Shown one piece after another: positions 8,560 to 37,446 of a DNA stretch of 64,000 nt. Position 1 is the stretch's first letter. Every line of letters starts with the position of its first letter. The DNA is taken from contig OZ024741.1 in assembly GCA_964016885.1 (NCBI GenBank), positions 353,338,001 to 353,402,000 on the forward strand, read 5' to 3'. The position numbers and the translations under genes are program-made. The stretch is from Eledone cirrhosa. Lineage: Eukaryota. The notes beneath the pieces are model-generated. The model did no database searches and was not told the origin of the DNA. It saw only the letters and a list, made by a program, of their open reading frames with translations.

Positions 8560-8876
8560 TATATAAAGAATGAATAATAACAGGTAGACATCATAAAAAG
8601 GTAATTTATTCCGTGTGCTTACAAGTGTTTCCACGGTGGTACTACAGCCTAGTTATGCTATGTACAATGTAAATACATTGGGTATTTACATTGTACATTT
8701 TACCATTCTGCTCTGAGGAAACAGTGGTCACAGCATTGGATATTTGAGTTCTGCAAGTACTTGTGAATTTGCACATAGCATAACTAGGCTGTAGTACCAC
8801 CGTGGAAACACTTGTAAGCACACGGAATAAATTACCTTTTTATGATGTCTACCTGTTATTATTCATTCTTTATATA
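8560..8876. mobile_element. PLE-like fold-back cassette carrying an HHR
   Basis: About 108-bp near-perfect inverted arms at 8560-8667 and 8769-8876, ending in (TA)n. Confidence 0.75.
8709..8820 (+). ncRNA. Hammerhead ribozyme-like motif with long stem II
   Basis: TGCT-CTGAGGA-[about 85-nt stem II, closing pair mismatched]-GAAA-CACTTG-TA-AGCA; stem I TGCT/AGCA. Confidence 0.65.
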
Positions 8877-9309
8877 TATATATATATATATATATATATA
8901 TATATATATAAAATATTAAAAAAATAATGAATAAAACAATGAAACAGTTCCTTATATTAAATAAAAAAAGTTCATTATTTAACGATCGTTTCTAGGATAT
9001 ATATGTGTTAGAATTGGCATGCATATTCAACAGATCTATGTACAAATATCTACATATATATATATATATATATATATATATATATATATATATATATATA
9101 TATATATACAGTGAAATGAGCCTTCTGGCTTAAGACAGACTTTATATATATATACAGCATATATATATATATATATATATATATTAGCCTCGCTTAAATG
9201 ATTTTTTATGTGGTTAATTTATACTGATTGGGAGAGGAAATACTGTATATATTTTATCTAATGATTCTTTGGACTTACATTTATATATATATATATATAT
9301 ATATATAAG

Positions 9310-9655
9310 CAAAGGGATATTTAATTTGTTGGTAATTCAACAAATATATTTATAACAGATTCGAAGCACTCGACAGTTTTTCTGGAGTATAATATTAATG
9401 ATATTAATAAATGGATACTATATTTATACATCCATATTTATTCTACTAAATATATTTCAAGGGTACGAAAACTTTGGTACTATCCAGACGGAACTTGAAC
9501 CCATAAGGTCTGATTCCTGGATATGTCACTATTTATAAAACAAACTTTGTATTTTGTCTTATGAGAGTGTACCAAAATTTTGGTACCCTTGAAATATATA
9601 TAATAGAATAAATATAGTTTTATAAATATAGTTTCCATTTATTAATATCATTGAT
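9310..9655. mobile_element. PLE-like fold-back cassette, same family as 36635-37112
   Basis: Inverted arms at about 9400-9480 and 9569-9652; shared sequence with 36635-37112; (TA)n on both sides. Confidence 0.75.
9550..9610 (+). ncRNA. Hammerhead ribozyme-like motif (core variant CTTATGA)
   Basis: TATTTTGT-CTTATGA-GAGTGTACCAAAATTTTGGTACCCTT-GAAA-TATATA-TA-ATAGAATA; 8-bp stem I kept by G-U pairs. Confidence 0.7.
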
Positions 9656-12476
9656 ATATATATATATATATATACATATAGATAGATATAGATATATGTG
9701 TGTGTGGGGGGAGGGGTGCGTGTGTGTGTATGTATGTGTGTGTGTGTGTGTGTGTGTGTGTGTGTGTGTGTGTGTATGTGTGTGTGTGTGTATATACTGC
9801 TAATCATTCTATCCGACAATTCTAACGGCTCTGGCAATTCGCAGCATATACACACTATATATCTAGTTCTTTGTAAATTAAATCGCCACCAACGATAACT
9901 TTTGATTTATCTACCGCAGGTGCAGAGAAGAGAAGGGCCCCGCTAGGTTTCAAAATTGCGCGAGAAATATTGTATGTCCCTGTGGTTTTACGGATAAAAA
10001 ATAAGAAGTAGGTGCATGGGCTAATGGCTAACGTGTTGAACATACGAACGTAATGTCGTGGGTTCGATTCGTGAACTGGGTGGCGCGTTGTGTTCTTGAA
10101 CAAAATATGATCCCTACAAATAATAGTTGAGAAAATTAAGCAACAGAATAGTGTACAAGTGATCGACTTTTATTACAGTTATGTTCTGCGATTAGAACCC
10201 TCATATTTTCGAATTTCAAACTCTCCTGGTGCTTCTATCATTTATAAGGTTTATATATTTAATATTGTATTAATAAACAGAGCGAAAATCAAGCCATTGC
10301 TGAATCTAGTAATTCTTTTGCGAAGAACATGCGCCATTAGTAATCTCGTGTACCCTCTCTTCCAAAAATTACAATGATCCTGTATAACATTGTAACATGA
10401 GCCGGAGGTTGTGGCCAACACGTTGATAACAGTTTACAAACCGTTGTCTTTTCTTGTCTGGTGCTAATTTATTTCAACTACGTCACTATTGCTCTTAGAA
10501 TAGGGATATACATCGTATATTAAGGCTTTTATCCTCATATATAATTCACATACATGCATATACGTACGTAAGCACACGTACACTAGAGTTTAAAGATTAA
10601 AATAAACACAACAATTTAGTTTTTTCTATTTACAATTTTGTATTCAAATAAAACAAATATTAAAATATTATTAACATATTATTATTATTATTATTGTTGT
10701 TGTTATTGTTGTTGTTGTTAATATATTCTGTCATTTTCGAATGAATCTTAACATTAATAAAATAACCAAATCTGAAATATGTTTTAATGGTTGGTGTCAG
10801 GAAGGATTGAGACCATTACATTTAGTGGGGGAAATGTTTATTATTTTATTGGTTTTGTTCATTGCACAATCATAACTATTTTTATGTGAAACAATAAACC
10901 TGAACAGTGTGGAATTTTCAAAAATATTCTTGAATATATTAAACATATCCTACAAAATATTGCTCAGTTAGTAAAATATGTCAATAAAGAAGTTAATATA
11001 CTGTTATGGCATTGATGGAAAATAGTGAATCTGCCAGGGGAATTGTAAATTCTCTAGTTATGGCTTAAGTTTATAGTTCATCATATTATAAAACGTCATA
11101 AAGCTGGCATTACATATTACTGGAAGACTTTCAAATTTATGGAAAGAATTCACTATGTGCATTGAAGAAATATTGAGGAAAGATACATCCATAAAATAAA
11201 ATAAAATAAAAAGCTTTAGAGTTGGCAAATAGTTATATGTCAATTTGACACGTCAGATGTAAGAACACATTCAAACTGATTGGAAATCTAGAAATCTCTT
11301 CTAGAAATAAAAAAAAAATAGATATAAAGTGTTTTTAAATCGACATCAATAAATAGGAATCATTTTCCTGGAATATATTCCTTTTTACACGTAAAGCTAA
11401 ATATAAATATTTAGGATAAGGGCCTAGAAACAAGAAAAAGAAAAAAATCAATAGAAAACTTATTAAACATTCCTACAGCAGAATTTGTTTTGGATAATAG
11501 CAAGGTGTTCATTTAGATTTAAGGTATCATTATTTGTGAAATACTTAGTTTCTGCTTTGAACTAAACAAAATATATTGAACTAATATGATATACCACATT
11601 TTTAGAAACAACGGAAGTAAGACTAGATATATCTGATAAAAATTCAGATTTTCAACAAGATAAGGCTGCCAGTCTTACAAGCAAATCAGTAATGAAATGG
11701 TTTGGTTGTAAATGCCAGGGAATATCGTATGGCTATATAATTTACATGATCTCAGTGACATTGAAAATATATTCGATAAAGAATTAATGAAAAAGGGAAA
11801 TATATAAAAACAAACAAATTGATCCTCACTTAAAGTATAGCAACAATAGTTAATCAAAAGTTAGCTGCATCTGTTAGGAATAGCATGCGTATTTCCCTTT
11901 ATTTATTAAAGAAGGTAGAGCACGTTAGAAAATGTTTTGTAAACTGGTTTTACATACACAGAGTCCAATATGGTGAAGGCTGAAATGTCTTTGACATAAA
12001 TTTGCTCAGTCAAACCTGAATTGGGCTAAACAAATATGATTTATTTCCTTTCTATGTAGAAAAATGTTGGATCCGTTAAATATTTGCTTTCTCCTAATAC
12101 CTTCTTTAAATTAGAAAATATAATTCTAGTATAGGCAACTTTTCAAGAAATTGTCGTATAGACATGTTCCACTTCCACTGCATTGTATAAATTATTACAA
12201 CAAATTTGGACCAGATCAGGTCTCAATAATTTCTTTCTGTTACTTGTTTTTCCCCATTACTTGAATACCACTGAAGTAAATTTCGGTCTTGAAATTGCGA
12301 GGATAGTATAGGATGATTGAAGTTTTTCCCCACTCATCATATTCAATCTACAAGACTCGATATATATATATATATATATATATATATATATATATATATA
12401 TATAAAGAAAAAGGGATGAAATCGAAAATGCAACTGAAGTCTTATTTTTTTTTTAAATATATATATTTACTTGGTT

Positions 12477-12514
12477 CCTTTACCGGTTTCGCAGTTCTTC
12501 TGCTTTTCAAAAGG
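12477..12514 (-). ncRNA. Hammerhead-like motif (inverted copy of 12585-12622)
   Basis: Reverse complement of the plus copy. Confidence 0.6.
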
Positions 12515-12584
12515 TGAGTTGAGATGGAGGGTCTGTGGTTTTTCTCACATCTGAGAAAAACCACAGACCCTCCATCTCAACTCA

Positions 12585-36100: not shown

Positions 36101-36766
36101 GGTAACACCACAATATGACACACTGAATTGGCTGACGTTAAACCCAACGAAACTTAAGTATCTGTTTATGTCATTGTTGTGACTGATTATATGTGTGTGT
36201 GTGTGTGTGTGTGTGTGTGTGTGTGTGTGTGTGTGTGTGTGTGTGTGTGTGTGTGTGTGTGTGTGTGTGTGTGTGCCTTGACACATGATGTGAGAAACTT
36301 CCGATTACTAAGCCTCAGACCTAGCCTTAATGTAAATACTTAATGTAAATACTAATCTCTACTATGGTATTGAGTAGACATTCTCGCGACCAACGATATG
36401 TGTGTGTGTGTATATATATATATATATATATATATATATATATATATGTATAGTTAACAAATAAAAAGTAAACAAAAGACAGGAGGCAATTTTACAGTTG
36501 TATTAGTTTCACGCTACGTGGAAGTGGGGGATATATATATATATATATATATATATATATATATATATATATATATATATATATATATATATATATATAA
36601 ATATATATATATATATATACGAGTATATGCATAGGTTATATTTAATTTGTTGGGATTCAACAAGCTTAAACATTTTTATAACTGATATAAAGCACTCAAC
36701 AGTTTAGTGGAGTAAATACACAATATATTAATAAATGGAAACTATATTTATAAAACCATATTTATT

Positions 36767-36832
36767 TATTTTATTATATATATTTCAAGGGCAACCAAGG
36801 CAAATTATAGTGCGCTTTCATCAGATAAAATA
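36767..36832 (-). ncRNA. Hammerhead ribozyme, intact core
   Basis: TATTTTAT-CTGATGA-AAGCGCACTATAATTTGCCTTGGTTGCCCTT-GAAA-TATATA-TA-ATAAAATA. Confidence 0.8.
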
Positions 36833-36999
36833 CAGAGTTGTTTTATAAATAAATATTGACATACCCGGAAAAAAAAGAAGAAAAAAAAGACAACATTAAC
36901 GGTTAGAGCTTCCTGGATAGCTATCCAGGAAGCTCCAACCGTTAATGTTGTCTTTTTTTCCGGGTATGTCAATATTTATTTATTTATAAAACAACTTTG

Positions 37000-37065
37000 T
37001 ATTTTATCTGATGAAAGCGCACCATAATTTGCCTTGGTTGCCCTTGTAATATATATAATAAAATA
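37000..37065 (+). ncRNA. Hammerhead sister copy (GAAA mutated to GTAA)
   Basis: Inverted duplicate of 36767-36832. Confidence 0.65.
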
Positions 37066-37446
37066 AATATGGTTTTATAAATATAGTTTCCATTTATTAA
37101 TATATTGTATATATATATATATATATATATATATATATATATATATATATATATATATATATATATATATACAATATATTAATATTTGGAAACTATATAT
37201 ATATACAATATATTAATAAATGGAAACTATATTTATAAAACCATATTTATTTTATTATATATATTATATTTTATTATATATATTATATTTTATTATATAT
37301 ATATATATATATATATATATATATATATATATATATATATATATATATATATATATATGCAAAAAGTAAACAGAAGCAACAGAGCAACCTACACTGTACA
37401 ATGATGGAATATATTAGGTTAACGCTTGAAATAAAAGGAAAAGATT

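Follow-up and report, generated by a model that had tools for sequence, protein, structure and literature searches.

Penelope-like insertions in (TA)n tracts of Eledone cirrhosa: head-to-head arms, two fixed ends and a single tail, with asymmetric twin priming as the probable route

Fold-back cassettes as ends of Penelope-like retroelements

Why do the fold-back cassettes in one stretch of the Eledone cirrhosa genome all face the same way, and how might they have been made? The window, by which we mean the whole 64,000-nucleotide stretch analysed (contig OZ024741.1, positions 353,338,001 to 353,402,000 of the forward strand), holds seven of them, at 8560, 9400, 12401, 23117, 23806, 29541 and 36716. 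A first-pass annotation had described these cassettes as head-to-head, with hammerhead ribozymes or halves of them in the arms, and had proposed that both ends of a break in a (TA)n tract prime reverse transcription near the 3' end of an RNA. Penelope-like elements (PLEs) are the closest mobile relatives of telomerase reverse transcriptase (RT), and we argue here, at a probability of roughly 65%, that the cassettes are truncated insertions of nuclease-bearing PLEs into (TA)n, with arms ending at one of two fixed sites, and that they arise by asymmetric twin priming.

Comparison of the window with itself gave inverted pairs at all seven positions, with arms 85-100% identical. In each cassette a minus-strand copy of one family end forms the left arm and a plus-strand copy of the same end forms the right arm, so that the head-to-head description was borne out in 7/7 cassettes (that of 9400 being judged by eye), and the outer ends of all seven border (TA)n. 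The cassettes extend further than first described, each having a tail on one arm only. We refer to the families as A (36716, with 9400 as a variant), B (8560), C (12401), D (23117), E (23806) and F (29541).

Longer copies of these ends run into PLE protein-coding sequence in the same sense, which sets the polarity without reference to any ribozyme and identifies the cassettes as PLE ends and not as miniature inverted-repeat transposable elements (MITEs). The open frame of family B, at least 770 amino acids long, contains RWK and DKT motifs, an RT core, a CxCX5C linker and a GIY-YIG domain without CCHH, and its nuclease residues are conserved. Pfam GIY-YIG matched the isolated family B domain with an E of 4e-4, just under the curated cut-off, and Pfam gave no RT match for the Hydra-type frames, including the whole family B frame, the RT motifs being read by eye. 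Longer copies of families A, D, E and F lead to nucleases like that of B, their N-terminal part not being seen. The CxCX5C linker, the lack of CCHH, and CxxC and CxH around the late catalytic residues were found in A, B, D and E, while the nuclease features of family F were read through a related subfamily 70-88% alike. Family C is of Neptune type, with a CX2-5CxxC linker and a cysteine pair inside GIY-YIG (in the translation of locus L098, with an RT piece in L084). Partial tandems forming pseudo-long terminal repeats (pLTRs), an inverted 5'-truncated copy and a tail at one end are all present. Judged by motifs, five families are thus Hydra-type and one is Neptune-type, the seventh cassette being a variant.

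The Hydra clade as described in PMC8557442 shares with these families RWK, DKT, CxCX5C, the lack of CCHH, and CxxC plus CxH, as well as a unit of about 3 kb, a hammerhead near the 3' end and insertion into (TA)n, where nearly all members of the clade insert, a preference that is there attributed to the nuclease linker. Its member Penelope-13_HM has an inverted 5'-truncated copy at its own 5' end (PMC8557442), as in the cassettes here. Unlike in that clade, tails here measure 80-145 nt compared to 30-40, and the hammerheads include degenerate ones and ones whose stem II is very long; our families are unmatched to the named ones, and PMC8557442 gives no count of a strict one-tail coupling. Family C resembles the Neptune clade in having CX2-5CxxC before GIY-YIG, two cysteines inside the motif and TA targeting, an assignment made putatively by motifs from a parent known here as broken pieces. 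Intact, nearly identical tandem copies of family B occur at loci L213, L223, L228 and L240, and because of these copies the family is probably still, or was recently, active.

The 12401 cassette does resemble a near-perfect 298-bp palindrome, and some families have many copies of one length, as would be expected of MITEs with terminal inverted repeats or of palindromes created in sequencing or assembly. Within one family, however, arms range from about 25 nt to 3 kb and single arms are common; RT and nuclease sequence follows on from the arms, the tail makes the two sides unlike, and both ends are found in short reads of other samples. These observations refute the MITE or artefact reading, to which we give practically no weight, and the ordinary MITE that the first-pass annotation had held against its own proposal is itself ruled out by arm lengths, the coding link and the asymmetric tail.

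The same polarity holds in copies beyond the window. Six arm searches of the 3.0-Gb genome gave up to about 1,800 candidates each, of which the best 40 were returned as hits and 30 loci were taken per search, with two segmental duplicates dropped from the set; a 65-nt family B query gave no matches, common words being skipped by the search. In the window and the search-derived loci, neighbours of the same family formed 164 head-to-head joins and 0 direct 3'-3' joins, along with 22 same-direction neighbours. Eight pairs stood tail to tail with a TA tract between the partners in 8/8, which marks them as separate insertions, and one more call in the search-derived loci falls in low-complexity body sequence. 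Since the hits are the best of many candidates and the A, B and C queries favour long arms, we also took a systematic sample of 80 stretches of 10 kb at fixed steps (800 kb, large contigs only). It contained 43 head-to-head insertions (45 raw calls, two family G insertions having been counted twice) and 0 true tail-to-tail joins, the two tail-to-tail calls being an artefact of a faulty family G reference. In both sets the polarity exceeds chance, and the sample indicates an abundance of about 50 two-armed insertions per Mb for eight families (43 in 800 kb), two arms being the commonest insertion outcome.

The hammerheads of the first description were confirmed in part. Complete canonical cores are present in both arms at 23117 (D) and in the left arm at 36716 (A), and the hammerheads at 9400 (A variant) and 23806 (E) have one core change each; by eye, that at 8560 (B) has a very long stem II, that at 12401 (C) has two core changes, and only a degenerate downstream half is found at 29541 (F). 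By sequence, then, a type I hammerhead in the pLTR would be canonical in A and D, variant in B, C and E, and degenerate in F. Rfam gave no match to a hammerhead family on nine arms, and a scan of the window showed none among the 150 of 313 matches listed, which were mostly hairpin microRNA models below cut-off. Across many copies of several abundant families (L192-L200; C, E and F), hammerhead cores deviate from the consensus at 1-3 positions.

Two fixed 3' ends and a single tail

In every family, copies end on the 3' side at either of two fixed points, the distal one lying 65-145 nt beyond the proximal one, and the stretch between them is the PLE 'tail'. Both ends start with TA-rich bases in the element, and in raw reads from three other samples both family B ends run into (TA)n (113-134 proximal-site reads per sample in the three samples; 143 and 121 distal-site reads in the two samples listed). 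In tandem copies of family B a start codon follows about 55 nt after the tail, which places both sites inside any RNA that is tandem or begins in the pLTR. The proposal that priming takes place near the RNA 3' end is therefore not supported: both start sites have fixed positions within the RNA, shortly before the start codon that comes next in tandem copies.

Like family identity and polarity, these two ends are directly established, and so is the rule that couples them. Of the 164 head-to-head insertions, 134 could be scored automatically and 30 could not; the tail was on one arm in 124, on neither in 7 and on both in 3, a distribution that departs from independent choice with p 4e-26. Inspection of the ten exceptions showed that four in fact conform (two internal tandem tails, one deleted and one interrupted tail) and that three have an interrupted end. 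The systematic sample conforms in 37 of 38 scorable insertions (5 unscorable), and extra scorable insertions of family F conform in 4/5. For 12 long insertions of family B the state of the far end was predicted beforehand, and all 11 ends that could be reached matched the prediction, the twelfth end not being reached.

Which arm carries the tail bears directly on how the second arm is made. Among the 124, the tailed arm was the shorter in 35, consisted of tail only in 23, was the longer in 29 and was equal in 37; the corresponding numbers in the systematic sample (n=35) were 11, 5, 6 and 13. Family F lengths beyond about 75 nt are unreliable in the search-set measures, whose reference included part of the inverted arm; the systematic sample was measured with a corrected reference. 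Each arm thus contains sequence that the other lacks in 58/124 insertions of the search set and 16/35 of the systematic sample, and because a shorter arm can hold the tail while each arm has private sequence, neither arm is a DNA copy of the other. This is the difficulty for a route in which target-primed reverse transcription starts at one end and the cDNA then snaps back and copies itself, as DNA, into a second arm. Such snap-back would explain perfect palindromes and the 66/124 cases in which the tailed arm is longer or equal, yet it cannot give the 58/124 and 16/35 in which the shorter arm has tail sequence absent from the longer one. As the sole route it is refuted, and we regard it as very improbable in general, although it may operate as a minor route. 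The tailed arm was more often the shorter one (58 vs 29, p 0.0025; 16 vs 6, p 0.05 in the systematic sample), as would be expected if the tailed cDNA follows the other cDNA on one RNA. Single arms joined directly to TA at their 5' end are found with a tail (15) and without one (16).

Parts of this picture are in print. Head-to-head has been reported as the most frequent PLE arrangement (PMC3846280), paired hammerheads on opposite strands 100-700 bp apart were noted in PMC4209133, and polarity, TA targeting and a one-sided tail have each been published; the near-strict one-tail rule with tail-only arms is the addition made here. In the literature searched, as far as its accessible text goes and with older papers on PLE structure outside its coverage, we found no count of the one-tail rule and no proposal of twin priming for PLEs.

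Probable priming of the two arms

We infer the cutting, the priming and the number of RNAs from these patterns. In asymmetric twin priming, the element's GIY-YIG nuclease would cut both strands of a TA tract, one DNA end would prime reverse transcription at the proximal site (the pLTR end) and the other at the distal site (the tail end), each with the help of a few TA-rich RNA bases. Both would copy the same RNA toward its 5' end, mostly one molecule or one source transcript, and each cDNA would stop early or run off a fixed RNA end. The two cDNA ends would then be joined by an overlap of 0-6 nt or with extra bases, followed by fill-in by the host, and extension of one end only would leave a single arm with or without a tail. 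Such a course leaves no option but head-to-head polarity and unequal arms of which just one is tailed. The twin priming of the first-pass annotation is kept in this sense: the best fit is to two cDNAs that are primed separately, at sites other than near the RNA 3' end, and then joined where they were growing.

In the twin priming that Ostertag and Kazazian reportedly described for LINE-1 in 2001, two target ends are said to prime on one RNA and the cDNAs to be joined through short overlaps, the second primer annealing at variable sites and the cDNAs covering different parts of the RNA, as a minority route. The tail-only arms found here have the same geometry; in the cassettes, however, neither site varies, the arms mostly overlap and so form palindromes, and insertions with two arms are more frequent than any other kind. 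Inverted and direct parts that do not overlap, as in the LINE-1 type, are found only in the 23/124 tail-only cases, and the rest overlap.

The cut is most likely made by the element's own nuclease and not by a spontaneous break. At least 5 TA repeats are present on at least one side in 118/122 two-armed insertions and on both sides in 91/122, with a median total of 27.5 repeats per insertion, and at least 4 repeats on a side were found in 41/45 calls of the systematic sample. The original proposal that TA cruciforms break spontaneously and are patched by RT from both ends near the RNA 3' end is in line with the 118/122 and with the need for two priming ends. The parents, however, carry a nuclease with conserved residues in an open frame and belong to a clade known for (TA)n targeting that has been traced to the nuclease linker (PMC8557442). 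Moreover, the start sites lie at fixed internal positions and each serves one arm, a pattern suggestive of a set geometry between protein and RNA, and 14/122 sites total 12 TA repeats or fewer (later shrinkage being possible). We found no evidence for a repair benefit, and the TA data fit nuclease targeting equally; we consider breakage and patching quite improbable.

Asymmetric twin priming agrees with in vitro work on a lizard PLE protein (PMC11167929): both strands of the target were cleaved and extended, synthesis began at two internal positions of the RNA, one at either border of the tail, and AT-rich DNA was favoured; a dimer is predicted. A different use of the same two sites is made in self-priming, in which an antisense or cDNA strand folds into a hairpin and a nuclease clips the strands at the proximal and distal sites and joins them to the TA target. 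Self-priming was proposed in PMC3846280, and a tail arising from nuclease resolution in PMC8557442. A self-primed hairpin would yield head-to-head polarity, one template and one tail, both fixed sites resemble the TA target, and equal-ended palindromes at arbitrary points are in excess (8/72), two of them at self-complementary sites. A fixed stagger, however, should place the tail always on the long arm or always on the short arm, and both are seen (29 vs 58). Folding back also requires pairing at the join, yet an overlap of 3 nt or more was found in only 5/30 family B joins; some arms of 2-3 kb have partners that are tail only and 27-45 nt long; and the in vitro system primes on the target with sense RNA (PMC11167929). 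Taken together, these observations make self-priming, the main rival, unlikely.

Whether the two arms share a template was addressed by their likeness. The arms were closer to one another than to other copies in 69/81 insertions, and differences at family-variable sites, per 100, were 0.29 between arms vs 1.72 for B, 0.38 vs 2.12 for A and 0 vs 1.91 for E, the signal being less clear in D and C. Arms that usually share family variants point to one template, as far as sequence comparison goes. The junctions show microhomology in part. Of 30 family B joins, 16 show an overlap of 1-6 nt, 12 contain extra bases and 2 are blunt; among the 18 without extra bases, 11 overlap by at least 2 nt compared to 17% by chance, a chance level pooled over all six families, and the overlap test omits the older families, where reference mismatch inflated the insert lengths. 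Raw reads on a family B copy listed no strand-changing joint, and the central joins rest on the assembly.

The first description also placed 5' truncation in the centre of the cassettes; the 5' ends do meet there, but many arms stop at one fixed 5' point and not at random (A 28/64, C 22/40, D 20/58, F 51/70, the A and C queries favouring arms that end at this point). The point lies at -183 in A, -144 in C, -161 in D and -59 in F. The fixed 5' stop is likely the RNA end. At three family D joins (L105, L108 and L119) the extra bases consist of several repeats of the initial 8-20 nt of the fixed 5' end, as though RT had made repeated jumps where the RNA ends.

Several observations weigh against asymmetric twin priming from a shared RNA. 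Three exceptions to the one-tail rule stand (L117, L148 and L022, with no tail or two), as do the nonconforming family F insertion (L280) and the 1/38 that fails in the systematic sample, and L239, counted among the 124, is uncertain, its tail being an internal one. In family C the shared-template signal is hardly visible (3.16 vs 4.15), the arm pairs of L113 and L205 differ at 4-5 family-variable sites and look two-templated, and gene conversion between arms could likewise cause their likeness. The extra bases at 12/30 family B joins indicate that annealing is not general. Both arms end at one arbitrary point in 8/72 insertions, where 1.1 were expected and 0 of 5,000 shuffles gave as many; some of these equal-ended insertions stop at palindromic sites, two of them self-complementary, and equal arms away from the fixed 5' points fit a shared RNA end or fold-back in a minority. 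No empty site and no target duplication was seen, a duplication not being discernible inside (TA)n, and contigs from four runs over 8050-13120 end at TA tracts, with no skip across an insertion (three of the four runs are from one sample, possibly that of the source individual). Finally, in PMC11167929 initiation occurs at a site non-homologous to the cut DNA, and the assay did not address strand coupling.

Insertions in the window and significance for PLE integration

Arm ends in the window were taken from BLAST or by eye. In family B the left arm (8431-8667, minus strand) is a short pLTR piece plus tail (about 8431-8559, the tail compared with tandem copies), and the right arm (8680-8873, plus) is a longer pLTR piece without tail that has (TA)n at its end and the hammerhead-like fold, judged by eye, with the very long stem II. 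The family A variant has a tailed left arm (9309-9480, minus; ends approximate, by eye) and an untailed right arm (9481-9653, plus; ends approximate) with its altered hammerhead at 9558-9602. In family C the left arm (12401-12549, minus) has no tail and the right arm (12552-12760, plus) has one at about 12697-12760. The left arm of family D (23026-23225, minus) is the shorter and is tailed, with a complete hammerhead at 23160-23214, and its untailed right arm (23226-23392, plus) has another at 23295-23349. Family E has a longer, tailed left arm (23662-24255, minus; tail about 23662-23790) and an untailed right arm (24256-24444, plus) with the hammerhead of one core change at 24360-24398, and family F a tailed left arm (29451-29592, minus; tail about 29451-29531) and an untailed right arm (29594-29656, plus) holding the degenerate half. 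In the 36716 cassette of family A, the left arm (36629-36920, minus) has a tail at about 36629-36720 and a complete hammerhead at 36775-36824, the right arm (36921-37108, plus) has no tail, and both reach the fixed 5' point of the family, where they abut with no spacer.

Three further two-armed insertions have approximate ends. That of family G (8047-8312), absent from the earlier description, has a long untailed left arm and a short tailed right arm; that of family H (46982-47481) has a tailed left arm and a right arm split by a later short interspersed repeat, which sits there with a short direct repeat; and a family F variant (43740-43901) has a tailed left arm and a right arm of about 14 nt. 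A chain of four or more PLE-type insertions occupies 8015-9673 (G, B, an uncatalogued family at about 8911-9053, and the A variant), each between TA tracts of 10-32 repeats, and the summed TA length suggests that tracts may be duplicated or regrown upon insertion. The TA tract behind the 36716 cassette holds, at 37171-37293, a stack of two or more family A ends that lie on the minus strand and are very short (24 and 59 nt). A degenerate (TA)n array of 3.6 kb (19421-23025) lies immediately left of the family D insertion, and further long TA-rich arrays are found at 25521-26285 and 37925-39159. Between TA tracts at 26290-28600 are AT-rich stretches that by eye look like the decayed body and 3' end of a PLE; four Hydra-type pieces used as tblastn queries found no match within the window. 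The window also contains a tandem array of a 37-bp unit (1-1876, truncated where the window begins; about 51 copies that are 98% alike), an inverted pair of 730 bp, 79% alike and 2.5 kb apart (48087-48801 and 51263-51977), and many copies of the short interspersed repeat family (5150-5700, 16000-17500, 40084-42880, 57587-57800 and 62711-63038).

How inverted PLE ends are formed has been named an open question (PMC8557442, PMC11167929). The cassettes resemble the inverted pLTR with optional tail of Penelope/Poseidon (PMC3846280; PMC11167929), and, unlike those accounts, in which self-priming is proposed or the steps are left open, the tail-only arms and short-arm tails found here favour one start site per target end. 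The counts turn the 'optional' tail into a near-strict rule and exclude simple DNA snap-back for about half of the insertions. Because these structures are abundant, annotators of repeats need to reckon with them: they can be mistaken for MITEs or for microRNA hairpins. We hold it slightly more probable than its opposite that asymmetric twin priming is the normal mode of integration of nuclease-bearing PLEs, in which a dimer holds one RNA and gives its two start sites, one each, to the cut ends. For the in vitro system, the prediction is that synthesis from the two strands of any one target begins at opposite start sites of a single RNA. If twin priming is indeed the normal mode, one rule would account for the inverted pLTR, for the polarity of the arms, head-to-head, and for the tail on one side, and would do so in no fewer than two clades.

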